From positions 1 to 24,000 of the forward strand of contig JAQTTT010000009.1 in assembly GCA_028710615.1 (NCBI GenBank): DNA of 24,000 nucleotides, in the 5' to 3' direction. The position numbers and the translations under genes were made by a program. Source of the stretch: Candidatus Nanoarchaeia archaeon. GTDB taxonomy: Archaea; Nanobdellota; Nanobdellia; Tiddalikarchaeales; Tiddalikarchaeaceae. Shown here in pieces: positions 1-22,125 of this stretch. Below the pieces are notes generated by a model. That model saw only the letters and a list, made by a program, of their open reading frames with translations. It ran no database searches and was not told the DNA's origin. Each line of letters starts with the position of its first letter. Within the stretch, counting starts at the first letter, position 1.

Positions 1-73
1 TTGGGGAAGAAGCAATAATGGGGAAAAAGAATTCTTCTTTGAGAGGGATTCATTGTGGGGGAAAAATTAAATT

Positions 74-871
74 ATGACTTTTAAAGTAAATCCTAAAACG
101 AATGGCAGCGGAATACTTGCTGCAATACCTCAAAAGGGCACGTGTCCTAATGAGTGTTCTGATTGCTTTTTTCAGAGTGGAAGAAGCTATCTTGAGCCTT
201 TGGATGAGAATCTTCCGAATCTTCCGACTTTGGAGCAAGTGGATGATTTCAGGATTGTTCGAGTGAATGATGGCAATGATTCTTTGGTAAAGAAAACTGA
301 AGTATTGAAAACAACCAAGAAGTATCCGAGAAGGTTTTATAACACCGCTATTCCAAGGGAATTGTCAAATCACAGAAAAGGTTTGCCTTTTGATGGTGAA
401 AAAACGGCAAAAGAGCTTGAATCTTTATTGGAGCCCGTTGTTGTAACAATTAATCCTGCTGAAATGACTGATACGGCATTCTATTTAATGAATCCTATTC
501 CAAAGAACTTAATGTTTGTAAGAATCAGGACAAATACTTGGAATCTTGAGAATGTTGTGGATAAGGCGATTGAGCATTACACTAAAAATGAAGTGCCAGT
601 GATTTTAACATTCATGGCTTATTATGGAGATTCTGTTCCAAAAGGCCATGAAGACAATTACATGTTCAGGAAAAGAACGCTTAATTCTTATTCTGCAATA
701 ACGACTGATGCATGGGAAAAAATAATGGATCGCCATAAATACAACATGTTTGTGTACAGTTGCGGAAAGATTGAGGGAGAAAAAGGAAAAACTTCTTGCT
801 CAAGATGCGGAAATTGCGCAAGGGAATATTTGAATACAAAAGAAAAGCTCAGCCCTTTGAAAGTGGAATAA
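74..871 (+). CDS. Cys-rich putative Fe-S protein with a radical-SAM-like CX3CX2C motif (function uncertain)
   Basis: 265-aa ORF. Residues 24-31 read C-P-N-E-C-S-D-C followed by FF, matching radical-SAM cluster spacing. A second cluster, C230-x11-C-x2-C-x2-C, lies at the C terminus. A hairpin and T-run follow the stop. The family assignment is motif-level only. Confidence 0.4.
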   Translation: MTFKVNPKTNGSGILAAIPQKGTCPNECSDCFFQSGRSYLEPLDENLPNLPTLEQVDDFRIVRVNDGNDSLVKKTEVLKTTKKYPRRFYNTAIPRELSNHRKGLPFDGEKTAKELESLLEPVVVTINPAEMTDTAFYLMNPIPKNLMFVRIRTNTWNLENVVDKAIEHYTKNEVPVILTFMAYYGDSVPKGHEDNYMFRKRTLNSYSAITTDAWEKIMDRHKYNMFVYSCGKIEGEKGKTSCSRCGNCAREYLNTKEKLSPLKVE

Positions 872-911
872 AGCTGAAAAAAACAGCTTTTTTTATTTTT
901 TTTATTTTTTT
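870..911 (+). terminator. Hairpin plus oligo-T terminator after the 74..871 CDS
   Basis: The inverted repeat AAAGCTG-aaaaaaa-CAGCTTT starts at the stop codon. It runs into a long T-rich tract (888-911), the archaeal oligo-T termination signal. Confidence 0.5.
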
Positions 912-917
912 AGAAAT

Positions 918-928
918 CTTTATATATA
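918..928 (+). promoter_or_regulatory. TATA box (CTTTATATATA) for the 953 gene
   Basis: The AT-rich TATA-like element is centred about 30 nt upstream of ATG 953. Confidence 0.5.
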
Positions 929-952
929 CAACTTTTTTAATAATTTAAAATC

Positions 953-1303
953 ATGAACAGTTTAAGATATAAGCTTTTTGGAAAAACTCCTCATAATGCG
1001 GATGATTTGGTTGATTATTGCTTGAAAAAGGAGGATTCAACCATTAGCGCAAGAGTTGATGTTAAGGCATACAAGAACAATGCTTTTGCGCCAATAACTG
1101 GCACAGAATATGTTTTTAGAGCAGAAATTAGCTGTGCAGAAAAAGGCAGAGAATTCAACATATCTGCATATTCGGGCTCGTCAAGCAGCAAAGAATTAAG
1201 CGAAGAAAGTGTTGCGAATTTGAAAAAAGAGATTAAAGCATTTGGTTTGGCAGGAGTTAAAATTGAATTTGCATCAAATGAATTGGAAAATTTGCTTAAA
1301 TAG
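953..1303 (+). CDS. Hypothetical protein, 116 aa
   Basis: Clean ORF with its own upstream TATA. There is no signal peptide and no motif I recognise. Confidence 0.55.
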   Translation: MNSLRYKLFGKTPHNADDLVDYCLKKEDSTISARVDVKAYKNNAFAPITGTEYVFRAEISCAEKGREFNISAYSGSSSSKELSEESVANLKKEIKAFGLAGVKIEFASNELENLLK

Positions 1304-1306
1304 CAC

Positions 1307-1318
1307 TTTTTTAAATAA
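1307..1318 (+). promoter_or_regulatory. TATA box (TTTTTTAAATAA) for the 1339 gene
   Basis: Centred about 26 nt upstream of ATG 1339. Confidence 0.5.
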
Positions 1319-1338
1319 TTAAATCCTTTAGTATAATT

Positions 1339-2004
1339 ATGAATTGCAAATCATTAATGCTTTTATTTTTTATTCCCCTGGCTTTTTCGCAGAATTATTA
1401 CGCAGATATTGTAATTAATGCTGAAGGTTCAGAATTATCAATAACCGGGATCACGAATCATCCGGAATTAATAAGCAATTACTCAAAATTCTTGGCATAT
1501 AATAACGGCTATTATTTGCTCAATATTTCATTGAGTGATAACTTTTCAAATTATGTCTATGAAATAATATTGCCTAAAGATGTAACGATTAATTACATCA
1601 AAACTCCTAAATTTATAAGCATGGCTTATGGGCAAAATTTGATAATTAAAGGATTGGGCTCAAATGAGGAATTTAAAGCAGTAATTCAATACAAATTAGC
1701 ACCACAAAACAATTTAACACATTATTTAATTGCGCTTATGGTTATTGTTGCCGGAGTAATTTTTTATTTTAAATTTTTCAAGAAAAAGAAAAAAACCGGA
1801 ATTAATTATTCTGCTTTGACTGACAGGCAGGCAAAGATAATGAAAATGATTATGAATAAAGGGGAGGTTGAGCAGAAATATTTGGAAAATTTTTTGGGCA
1901 TGCCGAAAGCAGCGGTCTCAAGAAATGTTAATTCATTAATTAGGAAAGGATTAATTAAAAAAGAAAAAAAAGGAGTTAGCAATCTGCTTATTTTAGCCAA
2001 ATAG
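1339..2004 (+). CDS. Membrane-anchored winged-helix (MarR/TrmB-like) transcriptional regulator with an extracellular N-terminal domain
   Basis: Signal peptide MNCKSLMLLFFIPLAFSQ, then a roughly 105-aa beta-rich ectodomain. A TM helix (HYLIALMVIVAGVIFYFKFF, aa 128-147) is followed by a KKKKK stop-transfer. The C-terminal HTH reads LTDRQAKIMKMIMNKGEVEQKYLENFLGMPKAAVSRNVNSLIRKGLIKKE. Confidence 0.65.
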   Translation: MNCKSLMLLFFIPLAFSQNYYADIVINAEGSELSITGITNHPELISNYSKFLAYNNGYYLLNISLSDNFSNYVYEIILPKDVTINYIKTPKFISMAYGQNLIIKGLGSNEEFKAVIQYKLAPQNNLTHYLIALMVIVAGVIFYFKFFKKKKKTGINYSALTDRQAKIMKMIMNKGEVEQKYLENFLGMPKAAVSRNVNSLIRKGLIKKEKKGVSNLLILAK

Positions 2005-2067
2005 TTTCGCTTTGTCTCGCTTTTTTTCGGGTTATTATTATATGTTGTTCCAGCGTAATAGTTTAGC

Positions 2068-2985
2068 ATGAATAAAATAGTTTTGGCATCAATGATGCTA
2101 TTATTAGTCTCAGCATCAGCGGTTTTTGCTGAGAATGAGACAACGAATGAAACAGAGTTATTCAATGACTCAATGCCTTTGAATGATTCCGAATTATTCG
2201 ACAATTCCACATTAATTAATGAAGATTTAATTAATGATTCAATCAGGGATTCTGAAATATTGTCAACCAACCCTGGAGTAATTTTAAGGTTCAGCCAATT
2301 ATATGGGCAGCTAAGCCTGAGGATTGAGCAAGCTGACTTGGTGATTGCTGAAATTAATGATTCAAGCATTGCTGAGCAATTAAGCTCAATAGTTGAAGCT
2401 TTGGAATCATTGAAAGCCGAAGCAGGCTATTACATGGATGAGGCAAAAGAATATGATTTAAGGCAAGCAGCGATTGACTTCGTTTACCTTAAAAAGAAAT
2501 CCATAGAATTAGTTTCAGAGTTCAGGGAAATCTCCCATGATTACTTTCAAGCAGGGCACATTAATGCTTTGAAAAATAAGCTAAGATTAGTGAATGAAAG
2601 CAACGGGGTAAGTGAAAAGATTTCAAGAATGATGAGCGCTCACAATGCTTTAAAAGTTAGGAATGTGGTGGGAAGCGTTGATAATGAAACAATTAATGGA
2701 ATAATGAACGGCTCAATCGCCAAAAACCAGATAAATAATGTAATTAGAAACATGTTTCAGAATTTGAATGAAAGCATAAGGAATGAGGTTATCATGCAGG
2801 TAAAAGAGAACTTGGTGAGAAATAATATCAATGCTTCAGCCAAGAATAATGAAGCTTTAGAGAATGCTGAGAATATTACTCAAAGAATAAGGCAAAACAT
2901 ACAAAACAGGATAGATGAGTATAAAGAAAGAAATCCTAATTCAAGCATTTCCAGCAGTGTAAGAAACAACGGAAGGGGAAGATAA
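2068..2985 (+). CDS. Secreted, N-glycosylation-sequon-rich, mostly helical protein (305 aa)
   Basis: Signal peptide MNKIVLASMMLLLVSASAVFA. I counted 14 N-x-S/T sequons by hand, six of them within aa 23-58 (NET, NET, NDS, NDS, NST, NDS). There is no C-terminal anchor. Confidence 0.6.
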   Translation: MNKIVLASMMLLLVSASAVFAENETTNETELFNDSMPLNDSELFDNSTLINEDLINDSIRDSEILSTNPGVILRFSQLYGQLSLRIEQADLVIAEINDSSIAEQLSSIVEALESLKAEAGYYMDEAKEYDLRQAAIDFVYLKKKSIELVSEFREISHDYFQAGHINALKNKLRLVNESNGVSEKISRMMSAHNALKVRNVVGSVDNETINGIMNGSIAKNQINNVIRNMFQNLNESIRNEVIMQVKENLVRNNINASAKNNEALENAENITQRIRQNIQNRIDEYKERNPNSSISSSVRNNGRGR

Positions 2986-2988
2986 GCA

Positions 2989-3165
2989 ATGAATTATTTG
3001 GCATTATCTTTAATCCTGCTGATAGTTTTAGTGAGCGGATGCGCAATTATTAATAATGGCTCAAGCAATTTAAGCGACGCATTAACTTCTGATGAAGTAT
3101 TAAGCGAATTGGATTCAGTTCTGGTTGATGAATCAGATGGTGTTGAAATAGGCTCAATAATATAA
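2989..3165 (+). CDS. 58-aa putative lipoprotein (lipobox LVSGC), below the ORF-track cutoff
   Basis: Manual translation gives MNYLALSLILLIVLVSGCAIINNGSSNLSDALTSDEVLSELDSVLVDESDGVEIGSII*. The ATG lies 4 nt after the stop of the preceding gene. The hydrophobic h-region ends in L-V-S-G-C, and the mature part is acidic. Confidence 0.45.
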   Translation: MNYLALSLILLIVLVSGCAIINNGSSNLSDALTSDEVLSELDSVLVDESDGVEIGSII

Positions 3166-3187
3166 ATTCTTTATTTTTTTTTTTATT

Positions 3188-3409
3188 TTATAAAAATCTT
3201 TTGTATGTTCCTCTTATTTCTTTCATTAAATAAGATATGTATTCTTGTGCAAAATCAGAATAATTTCCATTGTGCTTGTTCTTTAAATCTTCTTTTTTGA
3301 TTTTCAATTCCTCTAAGTCATGTTTATTATCATTCAATATTTTTTCAAGAATTTTTATTCTTTTGCTGTCTTCAACCAAAAAATCATCAACGCCCTTTTT
3401 TATATTCAC
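3188..3409 (-). CDS. Hypothetical small coiled-coil protein (73 aa, GTG start)
   Basis: ORF with a charged heptad-like sequence. A TATA-like element (AAATTTTATAAAAAAC on the minus strand, about 3430-3445) lies about 27 nt upstream of the GTG. Confidence 0.45.
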   Translation of the reverse strand: MNIKKGVDDFLVEDSKRIKILEKILNDNKHDLEELKIKKEDLKNKHNGNYSDFAQEYISYLMKEIRGTYKRFL

Positions 3410-3504
3410 AATAGAAAATTAAGCTGTTTTTTATAAAATTTTCTAACGCTTTTTTTTTAGTGAAAATCAAAGCATTAATAAGTTTTAACTGATTCATTTT
3501 ATGC

Positions 3505-3765
3505 ATGGTTAAGGTTATTAAAAAAAACAAATCAATGCAGCCTTATAAAGAATCAAAAGTTGTGAAATCTTGCTTTAAAGCAGGAACTCCTGAGCCAATC
3601 GCGAAAGCAATAGGCAAAATGGTTTCTTTGCAGCTTAAAGGGAAAAAAACTGTTAAATCTTCAGATATAAAGAAAAAAGTTTTAATAATTATGTCTAAGG
3701 TTGGAACAGCCTTAAAGAATTTTAAAAAAGGATTTAATAAAAAGAAAGCAGGAAAAAAAAAGTAA
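3505..3765 (+). CDS. Standalone ATP-cone domain protein with a Lys-rich tail
   Basis: VKVIKKNKSMQPYKESKVVKSCFKAG...IAKAIGKMV...KTVKSSDIKKKVLIIM fits the ATP-cone consensus (V-x-K-R-x-G-x-x-E-x-F-x-x-x-K...S-x-x-I-q-d-x-V). The C terminus is KKGFNKKKAGKKK. Confidence 0.5.
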   Translation: MVKVIKKNKSMQPYKESKVVKSCFKAGTPEPIAKAIGKMVSLQLKGKKTVKSSDIKKKVLIIMSKVGTALKNFKKGFNKKKAGKKK

Positions 3766-3769
3766 GGCA

Positions 3770-3789
3770 TTTTTTTTTTATTTTTTTTT
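3770..3789 (+). terminator. Oligo-T terminator (T10-A-T9)
   Basis: Two long T runs start 5 nt after the 3765 stop codon. Confidence 0.5.
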
Positions 3790-3802
3790 ATTTGAATAAA
3801 AA

Positions 3803-3814
3803 CATTTTTAAATA
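3803..3814 (+). promoter_or_regulatory. TATA box (CATTTTTAAATA) for the 3837 gene
   Basis: Centred about 28 nt upstream of ATG 3837. Confidence 0.5.
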
Positions 3815-3836
3815 GATTCTCATATATGTTCTTTTT

Positions 3837-4559
3837 ATGAATTGGGGAAAAAAAGTCGCTGCTCCTTTGGTTGCAATTCCTGCAAAAGGAGAGCTTATTG
3901 AAAAAATAGTGATTGGAGTAAATGTCATTGATTTAAACCTCAATAGTTTATTTTTTGATGTTGCTTATTTTTCAACGCCTGGAACTGGGCAAAGCCTTGA
4001 AACATGCAATTATTGCAATGCAAATTATGTTTTAAGGACAAATGTAAGCAAAAAAGGGGGTGAGGTTGTTAAAACATATTCAATCAATTGCCCAAATTGC
4101 GGAGCATCAGACAATAATCTGTCTGAAAAAGCCAATGAGCAATTGAATGGCCAAACTTTGGATGACAAGCTTGTTTCAATGATTAGTTCAGGGAGAATCC
4201 AATGTTCTCCAATCGCAACGCCGCTTAGAAAAAATATTTTATTTGCTGAACATGAAATAACTGATTTTAGCATTTCCAGTGCGAGAAGCATTGATTCTGA
4301 TTTAAAAAAAATAACATATGTTTTGATTAAAGACAGCAAGGGCGAAACAGGCAAATATTCTGCAGAGTTTAAAGTTGAGGATGTTTTTAGCCTTAAACGC
4401 AAAGAAATCATTAATAAACAGGATATTGAAGAAATAATTAAATTGGATGTTAATGAACTTCAAGAGTTAAAGGAAAAAGCCAATAAAAAAATTAAAGCTG
4501 TGAAAGAAGCTGAAACAGAGAAAAAAATTCCTTCAGTTTTTAGCAAGCTTGATGTTTAA
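3837..4559 (+). CDS. Hypothetical zinc-ribbon protein with a C-terminal coiled coil (240 aa)
   Basis: CNYC-x24-CPNC zinc-ribbon spacing in the N-terminal third. The tail is charged and helical (NELQELKEKANKKIKAVKEAETEKK). I recognise no family. Confidence 0.55.
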   Translation: MNWGKKVAAPLVAIPAKGELIEKIVIGVNVIDLNLNSLFFDVAYFSTPGTGQSLETCNYCNANYVLRTNVSKKGGEVVKTYSINCPNCGASDNNLSEKANEQLNGQTLDDKLVSMISSGRIQCSPIATPLRKNILFAEHEITDFSISSARSIDSDLKKITYVLIKDSKGETGKYSAEFKVEDVFSLKRKEIINKQDIEEIIKLDVNELQELKEKANKKIKAVKEAETEKKIPSVFSKLDV

Positions 4560-4605
4560 TTTTTTTATGATTTATTGATTTTTATTTAAACAAACAAATT
4601 AACAA

Positions 4606-4639: not shown

Positions 4640-6523
4640 ATGAAAAAACAATTAATTCTCGCAGCATCATTATTTTTATTTTCAGGAGTTTTTGCTTTCA
4701 GCATTAGCCAAGCAAGCCAATACGATTTTGACACTTTTAATTGCAATACTTTGGAGGAGGAATTAATTCCTCATTGCGAAAGCACTAAGAGTTTTATAAG
4801 GAATTGCTACACTAATCCGAATAATTGCGATTGCAGTTATTTTTCAGAGCCTGAAGCTCAAGCAGAGTGCAACAAATGGGTTGATGAAGGAATAAGATTA
4901 ATGGCTCAAAAATCCCAAGAATGCGTGGCGGATTTATATTCCTGCTCATGCAAGGATTTGCCCCATCCAAGATTAGTTGCTGTATGCGAGAGTGAAAAAA
5001 ACAAGTTTATGGGAAAATTAAGGGCAATGGAGCAGTCATGCTTTAGCGACCCAGCAACATGCGATTGCTCAATCTTTGAATCAGCTCAATACATTGCCAA
5101 ATGCGAGGAAGAGATGGGAAAAGCATCTCAAATAGCTGCATCTTGCATGGAAGATATAGGAAACTGCGATTGCTCAAGCATAGCTAATCCTGTGGCAAGA
5201 GAAAAATGCGAGGAAAACAAAGCCTTTTATATTGATTATGAAAATGATTTCAGGGCTAATTGTGAGGAAAACTTTGATGAGTGCGACTGCTCAACCATTC
5301 CAAGCATAAGCGGACAGCAGGCATGCGAGGCGCAAAAATCGAAGGTGCTTGAAAGCGCCCAATCCCAAGTTTATGCAATGATTTATGAATGCTTTAAAGA
5401 CATAAATAATTGCGACTGCTCAAAACTTCAAGAGCAAGGATACATTGATTATTGCGAAGAAACCAAGAATTACGGCTTTGCTTGCATGCAAACAGGAGGC
5501 ATGGGGTGTGAGCAATTGGATAATATAGTATTATACCCTCCGAGTTTGCCGGAATTTTTAAGGCCTTATTTTGCGCAGACATTCAAGAGTTTTATTGATG
5601 CCGAGAAACTGAAAGGCATGGCTGCCTCAGCAGAGATTGCAAGAACATGCGTGATTGACCCGCATAATTGCGACTGCTCAACCATACCAACTTATGCTCG
5701 AGAGTTTTGCCTGGATAAAAAAGATATGCAAATAGATTGCATTGAAGGAAATATTACTGCCTGTGAAGCATTGGATAACACTATTAATGTTGTTCCTCTG
5801 ACTGCGCCAAAATTTGTCAGGGATTTCTTGGACCCAATATTAAGGCCTTTAATGCTTATGCAAAAAGAGCAAATCAAGGGAAGGTATGCTGAAATGGTCA
5901 AAGAGCAAATGCTTGCGTGCGTTGAAAATGAAAGCAATTGCGACTGCGATTCAGTGCCTTTGCAGTATCAAAGTTTTTGCAGCAACAAAATTTCATTAAT
6001 CAGGGAGTGCAATGCGTTCAATTATAGTTCATGCTTTAGGTTAATGGATGAGCCAAATATCCCGGATGATTTGCCTGGCTTTATCAGAATCTTTGTTGAA
6101 GGAAGTGTTAACCGGCAAGTTGAGCAAAGAATAAATGCTGAATTAGGAAAAAATGTTGACAGCATTAAAGAGCCAATAATTAACTGCATAATTAATGAAA
6201 CTAATTGCGACTGCTCATCAGTTCCTGAAAAATACCAACTCTTTTGCGAAAACAAGATATTGTCAGTAAACAAATGCATGAATCAAGATTATGATGAGTG
6301 CTTTAAATTAATGGAAGAATCCCCTTTGCCTGAAGATTTGCCTGACAGGCTTAAAAATTTAATAAACGCCCCCGTGGAAAGGGAGTTTAACAACAGGATG
6401 AATGAAGCATTTTTAAAAATAAGGCCAAGTGTGTGCAATAACATGAATTTGGCGCAATGCATGAATTATTTTAACAATAATTGCCAAGGGTTAAGTCCCA
6501 ACGCTTGCTTGAAAAGGAATTAA
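4640..6523 (+). CDS. Secreted cysteine-rich modular repeat protein (627 aa, 50 Cys, NCDCS modules)
   Basis: Signal peptide MKKQLILAASLFLFSGVFAFSISQA, followed by nine periodic C-x6-C-x-C-x10/11-C modules. The last four modules are extended by C-x9-C-x7-C. Confidence 0.8.
   Translation: MKKQLILAASLFLFSGVFAFSISQASQYDFDTFNCNTLEEELIPHCESTKSFIRNCYTNPNNCDCSYFSEPEAQAECNKWVDEGIRLMAQKSQECVADLYSCSCKDLPHPRLVAVCESEKNKFMGKLRAMEQSCFSDPATCDCSIFESAQYIAKCEEEMGKASQIAASCMEDIGNCDCSSIANPVAREKCEENKAFYIDYENDFRANCEENFDECDCSTIPSISGQQACEAQKSKVLESAQSQVYAMIYECFKDINNCDCSKLQEQGYIDYCEETKNYGFACMQTGGMGCEQLDNIVLYPPSLPEFLRPYFAQTFKSFIDAEKLKGMAASAEIARTCVIDPHNCDCSTIPTYAREFCLDKKDMQIDCIEGNITACEALDNTINVVPLTAPKFVRDFLDPILRPLMLMQKEQIKGRYAEMVKEQMLACVENESNCDCDSVPLQYQSFCSNKISLIRECNAFNYSSCFRLMDEPNIPDDLPGFIRIFVEGSVNRQVEQRINAELGKNVDSIKEPIINCIINETNCDCSSVPEKYQLFCENKILSVNKCMNQDYDECFKLMEESPLPEDLPDRLKNLINAPVEREFNNRMNEAFLKIRPSVCNNMNLAQCMNYFNNNCQGLSPNACLKRN
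4805..6301 (+). repeat. Intragenic array of nine Cys modules (five short of about 38 aa, four long of about 88 aa)
   Basis: The DNA motif AATTGCGA(C/T)TGCTCA and variants recur near 4825, 5060, 5165, 5283, 5410, 5666, 5936 and 6205. The hand-indexed Cys positions are strictly periodic. Confidence 0.8.
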
Positions 6524-7424: not shown

Positions 7425-8825
7425 ATGGCTTTAATGATTTATAACACTCTGAACGGAAAAAAAGAGGAATTTAAGCCGATTAACGGCAAAAAAGTGGGAT
7501 TTTACATATGCGGTCCAACAGTCAATAATCATATTCATATTGGGCATGCAAGAAGCTACATTTTCTGGGATTTAATATCAAGATACCTGTCTTTTCAGGG
7601 ATTTGAGCCAAGAGTTGTATCAAACATCACGGATATAGCGATTGATGATAAGATTCTAAAGGAATTAAAGAAATTAAATAAAAGTTTTTTTGAATTAACA
7701 ACGCATTACATGCTTTCATACTTTTTTGACAGAAAATCATTGGGATTAAAAGAGCCTGACATTAATTGCCTGGCAACCCAGCACATAAATGAGATGATAG
7801 AATTAGTGCAGAAATTGCTTGACAAAAAATATGCCTATAAAGCGGATGATGGAATATATTTTGACATATCAAAATTCAAGGATTATGGAAAGCTTGCAAA
7901 AATAAAGCCCAAAGAATTAAAAGAAGGCGCAAGCAACAGAGTGAAAGCTGAAGAGTATGACAAGGATTCAGCAGCTGATTTCGTGTTATGGAAAAATTAT
8001 AAAGAAGGAGAGCCGTACTGGCACAGCCCATTTGGAAAAGGAAGGCCTGGATGGCATATTGAATGCTCAGCAATGAGCATGAAATACTTGGGAGAAAGCT
8101 TTGACATCCATGCAGGAGGGGAAGACAACATTTTCCCGCACCATGAGAATGAGATAGCGCAAAGCGAAGCAGCAACAGGAAAAACTTTTTCAAAATATTG
8201 GATTCACATGAAGCACGTATTAATGAACGGGGAAAAAATGTCTAAAAGCAAAGGAAATTTCATAACAGTGAAGGATGCAGTTAAAAAATACGGCGCTTTA
8301 TTGCTGAGATTCTTTTTCTTGACAACGCATTACAGAAAAAACATAGACTTCACTGAAAAAGAGCTTGAAAACGCGAAAGCAAAGCTGAAAAAAATAATTT
8401 TAGCATTTAAATTGCTTGAATCCGCCAAAGGAAGCAATGATTCAAAAGAATTGATGAAAAAATTCGAAGACTTAAAAAAAAGTTTTGAGTCAGCAATGAA
8501 TGATGATTTCAACACTTCATTAGCAATCACTCAATGGATAGGATTCTGCAAGGAAATTCAAAGCATAAAGGGATTGTCAAGGGCTTCAGCAAAAAAAATA
8601 TTAATTTATTTTGGCAGAATAAAAGATGTTTTTTTCGGGGATATTGAATTATTTGATGAAAAAAAAGGGGATGAATCAAAAAAATTCATAGAAATAGCGA
8701 TTGACATAAGAAACAAAGCAAGAAGCTTAAAAAACTTTGAATTAAGCGATTACGCAAGAAAAAAGCTTGAAGAAGAAGGCATAAAAATCAATGATTCAAA
8801 AGATTCCGCTTCATGGGAATACTGA
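7425..8825 (+). CDS. cysS: Cysteine--tRNA ligase (class I aaRS)
   Basis: HIGH motif ([17 protein letters not shown]), KMSKS motif ([10 protein letters not shown]) and GWHIECSAM, all typical of CysRS. The 466-aa length is appropriate. Confidence 0.96.
8795..8821. repeat. Direct repeat copy 1 (TTCAAAAGATTCCGCTTCATGGGAATA), the last codons of cysS
   Basis: The 27-nt sequence is perfectly identical to 9494..9520. Confidence 0.95.
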
Positions 8826-8830
8826 GTTAT

Positions 8831-9439
8831 TTACAGCCCTTTTGGAAACTTTTGCTGTCCATCTTCTGACCAAAAAACAAATTTTGATTCTTTTTTATCC
8901 TGCGGACAACTATCATAAAGCCATCGATAAGCAGTCCTAACTTTGTCATATTCCCATTCTTCATCACGGCCAGTAAGCATATTTATTCCTTTTGTAGTGC
9001 CAGACTCATTCTTAAATTTGGAATAACAAACATCAATTACTTCTCCATTATCACTGCGCTCTTTTAAAAAAACTTTTTCCACAATATCTCCAGTTTTTAA
9101 AGTAAAATTGTGCTCATCAAGCATTAAAAAATCAGGCGTATGAACTCCTCTGCCAATAACTCTTTTAACATCATCTTTGAAACATTGATAGTTTTCTTCA
9201 GTTTTTCCGCTTTCATCCCCCCTATAATGAAGGTTGTGGGATTCAGCTAATTCAAAAAAGGATAAAGTTTTTTCCAAACACCCGCAATTATTTTTCCCAG
9301 GAGAATCGCTTGCATTTTTTATCAAATAATTTTTAAGTTTTTCACAATGTCCCATCAGCATTTCATCTTTTAAAGACTGATTTGCTTGATATAGGGTAAT
9401 ATATTCTTTTAATAATTCATTCTTGTTTTTATCACTCAT
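8831..9439 (-). CDS. Hypothetical protein (202 aa) carried between the direct repeats
   Basis: Clean ORF. Its stop lies 5 nt from the cysS stop. The minus-strand TATA (GCTTTTAAAGAC) is centred about 27 nt upstream of the ATG. I recognise no family. Confidence 0.6.
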   Translation of the reverse strand: MSDKNKNELLKEYITLYQANQSLKDEMLMGHCEKLKNYLIKNASDSPGKNNCGCLEKTLSFFELAESHNLHYRGDESGKTEENYQCFKDDVKRVIGRGVHTPDFLMLDEHNFTLKTGDIVEKVFLKERSDNGEVIDVCYSKFKNESGTTKGINMLTGRDEEWEYDKVRTAYRWLYDSCPQDKKESKFVFWSEDGQQKFPKGL

Positions 9440-9461
9440 AAGTCGTAATTGAATAGTTTGT

Positions 9462-9470
9462 CTTTAAAAG
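9462..9470 (-). promoter_or_regulatory. TATA box for the 8831..9439 gene
   Basis: TTTTAAAG on the minus strand, centred about 27 nt upstream of ATG 9439. Confidence 0.45.
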
Positions 9471-9493
9471 CTTTTCTTTTTTTAAAGTTGTTT

Positions 9494-9520
9494 TTCAAAA
9501 GATTCCGCTTCATGGGAATA
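9494..9520. repeat. Direct repeat copy 2
   Basis: Identical to 8795..8821. Read in the cysS frame it gives KDSASWEYE-stop, a second potential cysS terminus. Confidence 0.95.
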
Positions 9521-9568
9521 TGAATAGGAAACAATATGTTTATAAAGAGATTTCTTTTTTTCCCAATC

Positions 9569-9958
9569 ATGGAAAGAACAGGCATAGTTGCGGGATTTTC
9601 AATATATTTTGAAGATTTGAAGAAAATGGTTCCTCAGCTTAAAACGTATAATTTTGTGAATAAAGCAGAAGTGCCGGGACAGATGAAGATTTATGTGATT
9701 GAAAAGGATGGAATAAAATATTACATGAAAGTTTTTCTTGAAGACTCGCTTCTTTCAAAAGCAATGATTGAAAATACTACAACAATGATTCCCACAGATT
9801 TTCCTGACATCGAATCTTACCATGAAAGCCTGATTTCAAAATTAAAAATGGAAAAACGAGAACCGGAAAAACGTTTTGCAGGAAACGGGGAAGAATCTTT
9901 CATTGATGATTTTAATGATTGGGATGTCCTTGAAAAATTGCTGGGATGGAAAAAATAA
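9569..9958 (+). CDS. Hypothetical protein (129 aa from M12; the track ORF starts at 9536)
   Basis: The TATA-like GTTTATAAAG (9539-9548) lies inside the long ORF version, about 26 nt upstream of ATG 9569. That favours the shorter start. A T-run follows the stop. Confidence 0.5.
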   Translation: MERTGIVAGFSIYFEDLKKMVPQLKTYNFVNKAEVPGQMKIYVIEKDGIKYYMKVFLEDSLLSKAMIENTTTMIPTDFPDIESYHESLISKLKMEKREPEKRFAGNGEESFIDDFNDWDVLEKLLGWKK

Positions 9959-10086: not shown

Positions 10087-10158
10087 ATGGCAGCAAAAAA
10101 AGGAGCTAAGAAAAAAGCACCTGCAAAAAAGAAAGCACCTGCAAAAAAGAAAAAATAA
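10087..10158 (+). CDS. 23-aa highly basic micro-ORF (MAAKKGAKKKAPAKKKAPAKKKK)
   Basis: AGGAGG (10071-10076) lies 10 nt upstream of the ATG. The ORF contains a perfect 2x18-bp tandem repeat (10117..10152). It is too short for the ORF track. An alternative 13-aa ORF from ATG 10068 cannot be excluded. Confidence 0.3.
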   Translation: MAAKKGAKKKAPAKKKAPAKKKK

Positions 10159-10179: not shown

Positions 10180-10317
10180 ATGAAAAAATATGAATTTAAA
10201 GCTGATGACGATGAAGACTTCGATGATGACGAAGCTGATGACGATGAAGACTTCGATGATGACGAAGCTGATGACGATGAAGACTTAAGCGACAATGACG
10301 CAGAATCAGATTATTAG
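10180..10317 (+). CDS. 45-aa highly acidic micro-protein (MKKYEFK + [ADDDEDFDDDE]x2.6 + LSDNDAESDY)
   Basis: The ATG ORF is encoded by perfect 33-bp tandem repeats. Its codon choice (gat/gac/gaa) is ordinary for this window. The antisense 98-aa ORF needs many TCG codons, which are rare elsewhere here. Confidence 0.4.
   Translation: MKKYEFKADDDEDFDDDEADDDEDFDDDEADDDEDLSDNDAESDY
10201..10286. repeat. Perfect 33-bp tandem repeat, 2.6 copies (GCTGATGACGATGAAGACTTCGATGATGACGAA)
   Basis: Copies at 10201-10233 and 10234-10266, plus a partial copy at 10267-10286, read directly from the sequence. Confidence 0.95.
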
Positions 10318-10414
10318 TTAACAGCTTAAATCCAAGAACATTTGATTATTTTTTTTATTATTTTTTTTATGAAAGTGCATCGCAAAGAGGGGAAACAAAA
10401 TTAAAAAAAAAGCA

Positions 10415-10597
10415 TTGAAAAAAACGAAGGCGTTGAAATGCGATATTTGCAAGAAAACGCACAAAGGGATGACGACTTGCCTTGAATGCGGTTCATTATT
10501 CTGCGCTAATTGCGGGGATGAGAAAATGGAAAGATGCGGAATATGCAGGCAATTCGAGCAGGACAAAGAAAACCAAGACAGCTCTTCAGATGATTGA
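10415..10597 (+). CDS. 60-aa four-CxxC zinc-finger mini-protein with an acidic tail (TTG start uncertain)
   Basis: C-x2-C-x9-C-x2-C-x4-C-x2-C-x7-C-x2-C, i.e. eight Cys and two predicted Zn sites. The tail is QDKENQDSSSDD. No in-frame ATG precedes the first CxxC. Confidence 0.45.
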   Translation: MKKTKALKCDICKKTHKGMTTCLECGSLFCANCGDEKMERCGICRQFEQDKENQDSSSDD

Positions 10598-14435: not shown

Positions 14436-14509
14436 GGGCTCGTAGCTCAGCTTGGCAGAGCACTTGACTTTTAATCAAGGGGTCGTGGGTTCAAATCCCA
14501 TCGGGCTCA
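14436..14509 (+). tRNA. tRNA-Lys (anticodon UUU at 14470-14472)
   Basis: Hand-folded cloverleaf. Acceptor stem GGGCTCG/CGGGCTC has two G-U pairs. D stem is GCTC/GAGC, anticodon stem CTTGA/TCAAG, loop CTTTTAA. T stem is GTGGG/CCCAT with T loop TTCAAAT. Discriminator is A, and no CCA is encoded. Confidence 0.9.
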
Positions 14510-16314: not shown

Positions 16315-18119
16315 CTGAAGTTTGCTTTAATGGGGTAATAGTTGGAACAGTCAAGAATGCTGAAGAGTTCTCGAACAATCTTAAAAAATTAAGGAGGAAT
16401 AATCAATTAACCAATAAATTAAATGTTCATTATGATAAAAAAGCTGATTCTTTGCAAGTATTGACTGAAGCAGGAAGGGCGAGAAGGCCTTTGATTATTG
16501 TTGAAAACGGGAAATCAAAATTAAATGATGAACTTATTGAGAAGCTTAAAAGCAGGGCATTAAAGTGGAATGATCTGGTTAAATTAGGGGTTATTGAGTA
16601 CTTGGATGCTGAGGAAGAGGAAGATTCTTACATTGCTCTTAATGAAAAAGATTTAAATGAAAAGCACACTCATTTGGAAATAATTAATGCTGGAATACTT
16701 GGAAGCCAAGCAGGGCTTGCCCCATTCTCCAATCATAATTCAACAGGAAGGGTTATGCTTGCTGCGAAAATGATTACGCAAGGGCTTGGAATTTATACAA
16801 CTAATTTTAATTTAAGAATTGACAGCGATGTCAGCATAATGCATTATCCCCAAAAACCTGTTGTTGATACAATGATTTATAAAAATGTGAAGTATGACAG
16901 CCACCCAATAGGCCAAAATGTGGTTATTGCAATAATGACCAATGAAGGTTATAACATGGATGATGCAATAGTGCTTAACAAAGACAGCGTTGGTTTGGGA
17001 TTGTTCCGCTCAACATTTTTCAAGCCCTATATTTGCGAAGAATTAAGGTATTCTGGAGAAAAAGATGAGATTACCCGGCTTCCTGACCCTGATAAAGGAG
17101 TCAGCAGGCTAAGGGGAATGGAAGAAGATTACGCAAAATTAGAGGATGATGGAATAATTTATCCTGAAGCAAAGATTCATCCAAACAGCGTATTGGTTGG
17201 AAAAGTCAGCCCTCCAAGATTTTTAATGGGAACTGAAGAGTTCAGGATGGAAATGAGGGAGAAAAATGATTCAAGCATTGCTTGCGAGAGGGAAGATGGA
17301 AAAGTTGATTCAGTAATATTAACTGAAACAGAGGATGGAAATAAATTTGTGAATATAAGAATAAGGCAGGCAAGAATCCCTGAAATAGGCGACAAGTTTG
17401 CAACAAGGCATGGGCAAAAAGGAGTGATAGGAATGCTTGTTCCTAAAAAAGACATGCCTTTCACTTCAACAGGGGTTTATCCTGACATAATTTTCAGCCC
17501 GCACAGCATACCAAGCAGGATGACAGTGGGGCAATTGATTGAAATAATCGGAGGAAAAGTCGGAGCTCTTGGCGGAAGAAATGTGGATGGAACAATTTTC
17601 TCATCAGAATCTGAAAAAGATTTAAGAACTCAGCTTCATGAATTAGGTTTTAGGGAAAACGGCTCAGAAACATTGTATGACGGGAAAACCGGAAGAATGC
17701 TGAATGTCAGAATATTCATTGGAAACGTTTATTATATGAGATTAAAATACATGGTTTCAAACAAGTATCACATGAGAACAAGAGGGCCAGTCCAATTATT
17801 AACAAGGCAGCCAACTGAAGGAAGGTCAAAAGATGGAGGATTAAGGCTTGGAGAAATGGAAAAAGATGTATTAGTTGCCCATGGGGCCGCTCTATTGCTA
17901 AAAGAAAGATTTGATTCAGACAAAGAAATAATGCCGGTGTGCAGCAAATGCGGAATGATATCTTACATTAATTATTACAGGAACAAAGGAGTTTGCAGCA
18001 TATGCGGAGAAGACGCTCCAGTTACATTCATAGAAATGAGCTACGCGTTCAAGCTATTATTGGATGAATTGAAAAGCTTATGCATTTATCCAAAGTTAAA
18101 CATTAAATACAAGGACTAA
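16311..18119 (+). CDS. rpoB1: DNA-directed RNA polymerase subunit B' (C-terminal half of split Rpo2)
   Basis: GDKFATRHGQKGV, PDIIFSPHSIPSRMTVGQLIE, GNVYYMRLKYMVSNKYHMRTRGPVQLLTRQPTEGRSKDGGLRLGEMEKD, and the C-terminal Zn ribbon CSKCG...CSICG. Confidence 0.97.
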   Translation: MTEVCFNGVIVGTVKNAEEFSNNLKKLRRNNQLTNKLNVHYDKKADSLQVLTEAGRARRPLIIVENGKSKLNDELIEKLKSRALKWNDLVKLGVIEYLDAEEEEDSYIALNEKDLNEKHTHLEIINAGILGSQAGLAPFSNHNSTGRVMLAAKMITQGLGIYTTNFNLRIDSDVSIMHYPQKPVVDTMIYKNVKYDSHPIGQNVVIAIMTNEGYNMDDAIVLNKDSVGLGLFRSTFFKPYICEELRYSGEKDEITRLPDPDKGVSRLRGMEEDYAKLEDDGIIYPEAKIHPNSVLVGKVSPPRFLMGTEEFRMEMREKNDSSIACEREDGKVDSVILTETEDGNKFVNIRIRQARIPEIGDKFATRHGQKGVIGMLVPKKDMPFTSTGVYPDIIFSPHSIPSRMTVGQLIEIIGGKVGALGGRNVDGTIFSSESEKDLRTQLHELGFRENGSETLYDGKTGRMLNVRIFIGNVYYMRLKYMVSNKYHMRTRGPVQLLTRQPTEGRSKDGGLRLGEMEKDVLVAHGAALLLKERFDSDKEIMPVCSKCGMISYINYYRNKGVCSICGEDAPVTFIEMSYAFKLLLDELKSLCIYPKLNIKYKD

Positions 18120-20732: not shown

Positions 20733-21865
20733 AAATTGAAGAATCAGAAAAACTATTGCCCAAAAGCGTATTTGATGAAATGAAAGCAAAAATAAAAGAA
20801 TACAAAATATCAAGCGACAAAACAATAAGCAAAATAACAGAAGAAACAATTAAAGCATACGAGAAATCATTAATATGCCCTGCTGAAAGCATTGGAATAA
20901 TATCTGCGCAAAGCATAGGCGAGCCAGGAACGCAAATGACACTAAACACCAAGCACTTCGCAGGAGTAAGCGAAATGAATGTCACCCAAGGGCTACCAAG
21001 AATCATTGAAATATTCGGAGCGCGAAAGCAAAGCTCCACTCCAAGCATGAAGATATACATTAAAGCCCCGCACAACAATAACGAGAAATTCATAAGGCAA
21101 TTCAGCGCAAACATACTTGAAACTTTGCTAAAAGACTTGTCAAAAGAAATAAATGTTGACTTAATAAACTTCAGGGTTGAAATCGTGCTTGACTTGAACG
21201 AAATGAGAAACATGAATGTTTCAATGGAAAAAATATTAAAGCAAATATCATTAAGCAAAATAAAAGCGGAAATAAAAGAAGAAGGGGACAAAATATATTT
21301 TGTTTCAAAAAACAATGAAGTAAATGATTTATTCAAGCTTAAAGTGCAGGCATCAGAAATATTTATCAGCGGAATAAAAAACATAACCCAAGTGCTTCCC
21401 CAAAAAAAAATATCCGAATTCGTAATATTAACAGCAGGAAGCAATCTGAAAAAAATACTAATCATTCCTGAAGTTGACATACAAAGAACAATAACGAACG
21501 ACATATTTGAAATCAGCAACGTATTGGGCATAGAAGCAGCAAGAACAGCAATAATTGAAGAAGGAATGAATGTATTCAATGAGCAAGGATTATCAATAGA
21601 TGTCAGGCACTTAATGCTAATGGCTGATGTAATGACTCATGACGGAATAGTTAAAGGAATCGGAAGATACGGAGTAAGCGGGCAAAAATCAAGCGTTTTG
21701 GCAAGAGCGAGCTTTGAAGTTGCGCTAAAGCATTTATTCTCAGCAGCAGTGCACAACGAAGTTGACGAATTAAAAGGGGTTGTTGAAAACATAATGATAA
21801 ATCAGCCAATACCTGTTGGAACAGGAGCTTACAAATTAAAATTAAAAGAGGTTAAAAAGAAATGA
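20729..21865 (+). CDS. rpoA2: DNA-directed RNA polymerase subunit A'' (Rpo1C)
   Basis: [19 protein letters not shown] trigger-loop region, then LARASFEV near the C terminus. ATGA overlaps link it to both neighbours. Confidence 0.96.
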
Positions 21866-22125
21866 ATGCAATTGAAAAAATAAAGAAAGCAATAAGCGAA
21901 GACAAGCTTCTAATCGGCGAAAACTCGACAAAAAGAGCATTGAAGTCAGGGAAAGCATTAATGGTTGTGATTTCAAACAATACTCCGCCAACAACGGCAA
22001 AAGAGCTTGAATCTTTATGCAAAATAGGAAAAGCTGAATTCGTTAAATCTGAAAAAGACAATGTGGAATTGGGAGTGACCTGCAGAAAGCCATTTAGCGT
22101 AAGCGTTCTGTCAATAAAAAAGTGA
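21862..22125 (+). CDS. rpl30e: 50S ribosomal protein L30e
   Basis: [26 protein letters not shown]...[17 protein letters not shown] matches archaeal L30e. It holds the conserved position after rpoA''. Confidence 0.9.

Follow-up and report, generated by a model that had tools for sequence, protein, structure and literature searches.

A perfect 27-bp duplication of the cysS 3′ end brackets an orphan gene in a Nanoarchaeia archaeon: possible scar of an integrase-less insertion

The 24,000 nucleotides analysed here (hereafter the window) are positions 1 to 24,000 of contig JAQTTT010000009.1 of Candidatus Nanoarchaeia archaeon (assembly GCA_028710615.1), a DPANN archaeon with tiny cells, and our subject is the 3′ end of cysS, the gene for cysteinyl-tRNA synthetase (CysRS), together with the DNA that follows it. 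The product of cysS matches PF01406 (1.4e-114) and DALR_2 (PF09190, 4e-6) and has visible HIGH and KMSKS motifs, which make it a class I CysRS, and it is 100% identical to the NCBI entry "cysteine--tRNA ligase [Ca. Nanoarchaeia archaeon]". The last codons of the gene are formed by a 27-bp sequence, TTCAAAAGATTCCGCTTCATGGGAATA, which is found again 699 bp downstream (start to start) as a perfect direct repeat; between the two copies lies a gene on the opposite strand, p202, and beyond the second copy begins another gene, p129, both of them orphans (Table 1). A preliminary description of the window had reported the repeat as a perfect duplicate of the cysS 3′ end, and had placed exactly one opposite-strand open reading frame (ORF) of 202 aa between the copies, with its stop 5 nt from the stop of cysS; the coordinates and descriptive statements were all confirmed when the window was scanned again, and the ORF list agrees.

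Table 1. Features of the cysS region, in window coordinates.
Feature	Position	Strand	Remarks
cysS, class I cysteinyl-tRNA synthetase, 466 aa	7425-8825	+	intact; stop TGA 8823-8825, just past copy 1
Repeat copy 1 (attL-like)	8795-8821	+	codes for (D)SKDSASWE of CysRS, then for bases 1 and 2 of its last codon (Tyr)
Putative inserted DNA	8822-9493	.	672 bp of unique sequence between the repeats; starts with C+TGA
p202, orphan gene, 202 aa	8831-9439	-	only ORF of the repeat-bracketed interval; convergent with cysS
TATA-like box TTTTAAAG	9462-9469	-	-30 to -23 from the p202 ATG
Repeat copy 2 (attR-like)	9494-9520	+	non-coding; lies where p202 and p129 have their divergent promoters
TGAATAG	9521-9527	+	in the cysS register completes Tyr, then Glu and stop (TAG 9525-9527)
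p129, downstream orphan, 129 aa	9569-9958	+	outside the repeats; 129-aa gene call in L002; TATA-like box TTTATAAAG at 9539-9547

The repeat is far beyond chance. The 27-mer occurs exactly twice in the window, with no third occurrence even when three mismatches are allowed; two matches were the outcome in none of 100 dinucleotide-preserving shuffles, and the pair is the longest perfect direct repeat of the 24 kb. Both copies directly abut the 672-bp interval, copy 1 being flanked by ATGA on the left and CTGAGTTA on the right, and copy 2 by GTTGTTTT and TGAATAGG, respectively. The GC content of the interval is about that of its flanks, and the insert is not set apart by composition.

The present CysRS ends in ..WEY, its final Tyr codon and its stop being supplied by the C and TGA that open the interval. 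Read in the register of cysS, copy 2 leads to ..WEYE and then to a stop, and translation thus bears out the earlier statement that either copy could complete CysRS, both remaining in frame. Among six relatives the CysRS termini are of two types, one ending W[SN]Y (L004, L005, L089) and the other WE[YF][EK] (L006, L007/8, L090), and the copy 2 reading (TGGGAATATGAATAG) closely matches two of the latter, those of L006 (TGGGAATATGAGTAA, ending WEYE) and L090 (TGGGAATTTGAATAA, ending WEFE). Because this ending matches the CysRS termini of relatives, copy 2 and its right flank look like a genuine displaced gene end, and the TGAATAG directly after copy 2 is the probable displaced original end of cysS. 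When one repeat and the 672-bp interval are removed in silico, cysS reads ..WEYE-TAG and is followed by 11 nt, the p129 box TTTATAAAG, 21 nt and the ATG of p129, which, judged from sequence, is an ordinary compact junction for this genome. None of ~85 other cysS loci among the matches listed has a direct duplicate of at least 16 nt of its own cysS 3′ end; these loci came from a profile scan of GTDB genomes with over-general patterns, all of those among the matches listed are at most 46% identical, and they serve as a negative control only.

The same-species set comprises seven assemblies, namely three NCBI contigs of metagenome-assembled genomes (MAGs; the further MAGs with the same arrangement are GCA_028687195.1 and GCA_028716185.1) and four Logan assemblies (SRR22315505-08), whose sequences are 99.7–100% identical to the window and whose single-nucleotide polymorphisms (SNPs) define at least four haplotypes. 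Both repeat copies are perfect in every contig that covers them, and both junctions are crossed in the three MAG contigs and in three or four Logan contigs that come independently from different runs and have distinguishing SNPs. Logan contigs are built with k = 31, and because this is longer than the 27-bp repeat, the k-mers of the recombinant junctions must be present in the reads. One Logan contig (L091) stops 5 nt past copy 1, and its end coincides with a polymorphic site, 8792. The preliminary description had named an assembly artefact as a way in which the repeat might prove false; with both copies recovered in seven assemblies and at least four haplotypes, the repeat survives that check.

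The codon usage of p202 is the least host-like among the window ORFs tested. Its synonymous-usage score is 0.075, as compared to 0.317 ± 0.059 for same-size samples of reference genes, and none of 5000 bootstraps were as low; p129 (0.177) is closer to the host, and cysS scores 0.278. Within the species p202 has three non-synonymous SNPs (D3N, L16I, and S22Y) and one synonymous SNP, as compared to two synonymous SNPs in the covered part of cysS and none in p129, and this pattern, small as the numbers are, fits a weakly constrained or young gene. We consider p202 to be very probably expressed, because an ORF of 609 nt is beyond chance at 33% GC, is the best of the six frames, and is preceded by the TTTTAAAG box. 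Boxes of the TTTTTAAA type stand at the same position upstream of cysS, thyX, DUF362, DUF389, and other genes of the window, and the TATA box attributed to p202 in the preliminary description is thus plausible, being host-like in position and form, although its function is deduced from that likeness. The p202 transcript would probably continue antisense through copy 1 until a T5 run at 8783-8787. As for the sequences on either side of copy 2, 9450-9483 and 9521-9561 both begin with TGAATAG and continue with a TATA-like box and a T-run (TGTCTTTAAAAGCTTTTCTTTTTTT and TGTTTATAAAGAGATTTCTTTTTTT, respectively; p ~0.002 versus shuffles). This likeness was rejected as evidence, its score of 32 falling within the range of unrelated promoters of the window.

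No family could be assigned to p202, which has no match in Pfam (E ≤ 10), NCBIfam (E ≤ 1), PHROGs, PADLOC, or PDB sequences; that it has no nameable motif, as had been remarked from the sequence, agrees with family, PDB and homologue searches that were all empty. One candidate homologue, P0122, proved to be a spurious match to a low-complexity repeat protein. A single-sequence AlphaFold model had a pLDDT (predicted local distance difference test) of 40.5 over the full length and 44.9 over the C-terminal half, too low for fold comparison. The preliminary description had picked out a segment of p202 as vaguely reminiscent of a PD-(D/E)xK nuclease core, without a convincing alignment, and for this we found no support in Pfam, NCBIfam, PADLOC, PHROG, or PDB, the AlphaFold pLDDT being 40-45. 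The low-confidence secondary structure predicted for residues 78-190 (helix 78-95, strands 117-127, 133-142, and 148-156, helix 163-176, strand 185-190; pLDDT 40-45) has an element order compatible with PD-(D/E)xK topology, with a "PD" at 102-103 and no clear (D/E)xK after it. Residues 15-58 (9263-9394) resemble the N-terminus of the DJ-1/PfpI protein of L007 (7915-8445) at 36% over 45 aa (pairwise E = 6e-4), and the DJ-1/PfpI gene is carried by relatives on the same strand and in the same variable region. We set this likeness aside as probably spurious, since many comparisons were made and Pfam shows no DJ-1 signal in p202.

The six relatives (71–82% CysRS identity) have the same gene order on both sides of the segment downstream of cysS and lack p202, p129, and any duplicate of their own cysS end. 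The preliminary description had raised the case of both repeat copies and the intervening gene standing in synteny in all relatives; these six have neither. Between cysS and the gene for an acidic peptide farther downstream they carry HD, HAD_2, and DJ-1/PfpI genes and unnamed ORFs (L005-L008, L089, L090), and the p202/p129 region showed no underlying traces of the HD, HAD, or other genes of the relatives. Going by gene content, the segment after cysS is a gene-turnover hotspot, and 8826 to ~10080 appears as a lineage-specific replacement within it, of which the repeats bracket the left half only. An alternative ATG for p129 at 9536 would lengthen its product to 140 aa.

The reading we favor, at a probability of about 0.45, is that an insertion, non-autonomous and without an integrase, rebuilt the end of cysS and left the repeats as its attachment (att)-like scar. 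The anatomy is that of classical att integration because one repeat restores a housekeeping gene at its 3′ end, and the displaced end stays with the other. In one Nanoarchaeia species, a small segment (672 bp plus one 27-bp core, carrying p202) would have inserted into the last codons of cysS through reciprocal recombination between a 27-bp sequence on a postulated circular donor and the identical cysS 3′ end (attP × attB), with a recombinase supplied, presumably, from a source in trans or by a larger element later lost by deletion. The attL-like copy 1 would thereby have been joined to the body of cysS, with the insert giving C+TGA and hence a CysRS ending in ..WEY, while the attR-like copy 2 would keep the displaced original end, ..WEYE, now in front of the p129 promoter. 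Such an insertion could be tolerated because CysRS lost its terminal Glu only, and it would be a recent event because copy 2, which is unconstrained, is still perfect. The element would now be non-autonomous and fixed in the sampled population, either like the integrase-less elements of streptococci considered below or as a "cryptic" integrated remnant; the direction in which the event ran and any mobility still left are matters that we infer. The integrative element proposed in the preliminary description is thus upheld in part: a real, lineage-specific, codon-atypical single-gene insertion that regenerates the cysS end is there, whereas an empty site, a circular junction, an attP-bearing element, and a second copy of the cargo were not found in the collections searched.

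Scars of this kind have precedents. Among 68 integrated elements of Thaumarchaeota, 14 lie in the 3′-distal region of protein genes and provide a new stop, and the att repeats of archaea measure 8–69 bp (PMC6563490). In streptococci, cis-mobilizable elements (CIMEs, 1.2–13 kb) and microCIMEs (130–220 bp) are integrase-less, att-flanked, and located at the 3′ ends of fda, rpmG, rpsI, rplL, and tRNA-Lys genes (PMC7563491). The cysS unit is like CIMEs and microCIMEs in having short att(-like) repeats, one of which regenerates a housekeeping 3′ end, no integrase or transfer genes, and few or no cargo genes (PMC7563491). The sizes of these two classes bracket that of the 0.7-kb cysS unit, which likewise retains its att-like sites without genes for recombination or transfer. 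However, CIMEs are bacterial, are defined by descent from a known integrative and conjugative or integrative and mobilizable element sharing the att site, and usually stand in tandem with that parent, whereas the cysS unit has a DPANN host, neither the window nor the relatives contain an autonomous element that could be its parent, and no helper or other user of its att-like site is known. With the archaeal elements integrated at 3′ ends it shares the use of the last codons of a protein gene, the displacement of the original stop, and the new stop contributed by the element (PMC6563490); those elements are multigene, several kb or more in length, and verified by empty sites in sister genomes (PMC6563490), whereas the cysS unit has one orphan and no integrase. 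Transposons and casposons also have direct repeats flanking the insertion, and casposons occur in gene 3′ ends as well, but they depend on an enzyme (a transposase or Cas1) as well as on terminal inverted repeats, and give target-site duplications of 2–15 bp, none of which was found at the cysS unit. Displaced 3′ gene ends that result from recombination at a short conserved block are also familiar from the cdiA-CT and rhs orphan modules. There, as here, a new 3′ end replaces the old one, which is left downstream behind a short repeat, but cdiA-CT and rhs swap toxin domains and immunity genes, whereas at cysS one codon and a stop were swapped and the intervening gene is on the opposite strand. 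The cysS unit is best filed as a very small scar of a known kind, without an integrase, in a DPANN archaeon.

Several observations weigh against an att scar. Neither in the insert nor among the ORFs of the window did Pfam and NCBIfam reveal an integrase, a transposase, or any other hallmark of mobile elements, and the inner ends of the insert are not joined by terminal inverted repeats; the preliminary description had noted both absences, and the family searches and repeat scan agree with it. The 27-mer has a weak internal dyad (ATTCC-8 nt-GGAAT) that is unconvincing as a recombinase core, and a third, degenerate repeat copy, which would be a sign of tandem accretion, was searched for and not found. 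No empty-site allele was found, the predicted 467-aa CysRS (..WEYE) being absent from 15 billion proteins, and the arrangement that had been suggested for such a site, cysS directly before the gene at 9569 with a single 27-mer, is not seen in the relatives, which have HD/HAD genes there. As no public genome lies between 82% and 100% CysRS identity, a true empty site is not findable in public data, and the six relatives are too distant to serve as empty sites because they have other genes after cysS and the flanking p129 is itself an orphan. Neither the JGI metagenome contigs nor the GTDB genomes contain the 27-mer, and IMG/VR lacks its 20-mer core; these three collections yielded neither an attP-bearing element nor other elements using the 27-bp core. 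Outside the species, p202 has no homologue in 15 billion proteins, IMG/VR, or phage and plasmid collections (by a word-indexed search of 5.8 billion clusters, full HMMER on 1.84 billion representatives, and tblastn on phages and plasmids), and the expectation that further copies might lie beside other duplicated gene ends led to same-species copies only. Use of the cysS end as an integration site was seen neither in the six relatives nor in the ~85 cysS loci among the matches listed. Lastly, the insertion is fixed among the sampled strains of the species, each of which carries it.

A second gene-fragment patch within the window adds to this list. Positions 400-428 and 21990-22018 form a direct repeat that matches at 28 of 29 nt, with an exact 26-nt core (AACGGCAAAAGAGCTTGAATCTTTAT) and sharp boundaries. 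One copy is inside an orphan ORF (74-871; 265 aa, no Pfam match, codon-atypical) and the other, ~21.6 kb away, is inside a ribosomal protein gene of the L30e/L7Ae family (21862-22125), and both copies are in frame and encode TAKELESL. This patch brackets no mobile element, and it suggests that the genome can form short ectopic duplications by another route. In form the L30e patch resembles the cysS 27-mer: in each case an orphan region has received a copy of ~27 nt of a housekeeping gene. The window also has an 18-nt exact direct repeat, AATGATTCAAGCATTGCT, shared by the ORF region at 2068-2985 (2356-2373) and the RNA polymerase B′ gene (17265-17282), which is of borderline significance for an AT-rich window of 24 kb.

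A different origin, which we regard as a serious possibility although one at distinctly less than even odds, is a one-off insertion that was neither site-specific nor mobile, into the variable region after cysS, with the 27-bp duplication as its by-product. Such an insertion might proceed by homology-facilitated illegitimate recombination (e.g., between haplotypes with different genes after cysS), by a template switch with re-entry 27 nt back, or by repair of a staggered break, and only variants with cysS intact would have survived. It would be in keeping with the lack of a recombinase, of inverted repeats, and of any second copy of repeat or cargo in the collections searched; with a turnover hotspot in which this lineage has two orphans and its relatives have HD/HAD_2/DJ-1 genes; with the exact, in-frame 26 nt of rpl30e in another codon-atypical orphan ORF, bracketing nothing mobile; and with fixation in all sampled haplotypes. 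However, it must treat as coincidence what is otherwise a hallmark of att sites, that the duplication falls on the final nine codons of a housekeeping gene and that frame and stop are restored on either copy, an objection that is weakened in that selection for an intact cysS filters the outcomes of a one-off insertion. In addition, 27 bp is typical of att cores, and the insert is a neat unit of promoter and ORF with almost no spare sequence. A one-off insertion thus accounts for the anatomy about as well as an att scar does.

We consider it unlikely that the unit is an active minimal single-gene cassette of DPANN archaea, which would enter the cysS end by mimicking the 27-bp gene end, either with a host or helper recombinase acting in trans or with p202 as an unrecognized nuclease or recombinase, and which would have produced the L30e patch by the same process. 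Even less probable is a target-site duplication, in which a transposase-like or Cas1-like enzyme would have inserted a linear 672-bp element with a 27-nt stagger, followed by gap fill-in. The exact abutment of repeats and insert would agree with this, and Cas1-family integrases do duplicate long targets, the target-site duplications of casposons being 14–15 bp and CRISPR repeats ~30 bp. Casposons also insert in the 3′-distal parts of protein genes in archaea (PMC6563490). Nevertheless, the insert has no terminal inverted repeats, neither it nor the window encodes a transposase or Cas1, no other copies of the element were found, and 27 bp is far beyond the usual lengths of such duplications. 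It also seems very improbable that copy 2 has been kept for a function, be it to regulate the divergent p202/p129 promoters or to pair, as RNA, with the cysS 3′ end. Copy 2 is indeed perfect though non-coding and lies upstream of the TATA-like boxes of both p129 (by ~20 nt) and p202 (by ~25 nt), and p202 is probably transcribed antisense through copy 1, but among assemblies that are ~99.9% identical perfect conservation is uninformative, the relatives lack the duplicate, and the only Rfam match in the window is a tRNA-Lys (14436-14509), with none at the repeat region. An artefact of assembly or binning (e.g., a small circular molecule threaded in at the shared 27-mer) is scarcely credible, for although all of the sequences are metagenome-derived and L091 ends just past copy 1, that end is at a polymorphic position and both junctions are spanned in independent MAG and Logan contigs with SNPs. 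A diversity-generating retroelement was also considered and rejected, as the window has no reverse transcriptase and the repeat is 27 bp long and 100% identical, versus ~100 bp differing at adenines.

The genes flanking the cysS region are, by their predicted products, ordinary archaeal housekeeping genes. Upstream of cysS are genes for an Ssb-like OB-fold protein and a treble-clef zinc-finger protein. Downstream are those for a Lys-rich peptide, an acidic repeat peptide, a zinc-ribbon protein, DUF362-Fer4, a histone-like protein, ThyX, DUF389, and tRNA-Lys, and then those for RNA polymerase subunits H, B″, B′, A′, and A″, followed by L30e, NusA, S12, and S7. The first of the downstream peptides has 23 aa and is Lys/Ala-rich (10087-10158; MAAKKGAKKKAPAKKKAPAKKKK), the second is extremely acidic, its D/E repeats being encoded by a 33-nt tandem repeat (10182-10319), and the Cys-rich zinc-ribbon protein has ~54–60 aa (10415-10597); of the three, the second and third are conserved throughout the relatives, where they shortly precede DUF362-Fer4. 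Beside the Ssb-like gene is a 627-aa ORF (4640-6523) without a Pfam or NCBIfam family, which has at least five internal repeats with a CDCS motif (..AATTGCGACTGCTCAA..) and is 70–77% identical in relatives, where it has the same position. The first part of the window (1-4600) contains family-less ORFs of 265, 116, 305, and 240 aa, a MarR/TrmB-like winged-helix protein (1339-2004), and a weak ATP-cone match (3505-3765). Most of these ORFs have no counterpart in the retrieved flanks of relatives, and this part may be another variable region.

Under either of the two leading readings the practical value of the finding is modest, since no cargo function can be inferred and there is no sign of current mobility. 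If a one-off insertion is the true origin, the locus would be a clean case of an orphan gene entering a hotspot beside an essential gene without damage. If, on the other hand, the repeats are an att scar, the locus would be a very small integrase-less unit in a reduced archaeal genome, with a defined 27-bp site from which to find its recombinase or helper, and DPANN genomes would gain orphan genes through integration that regenerates gene ends, as larger archaea and bacteria do.

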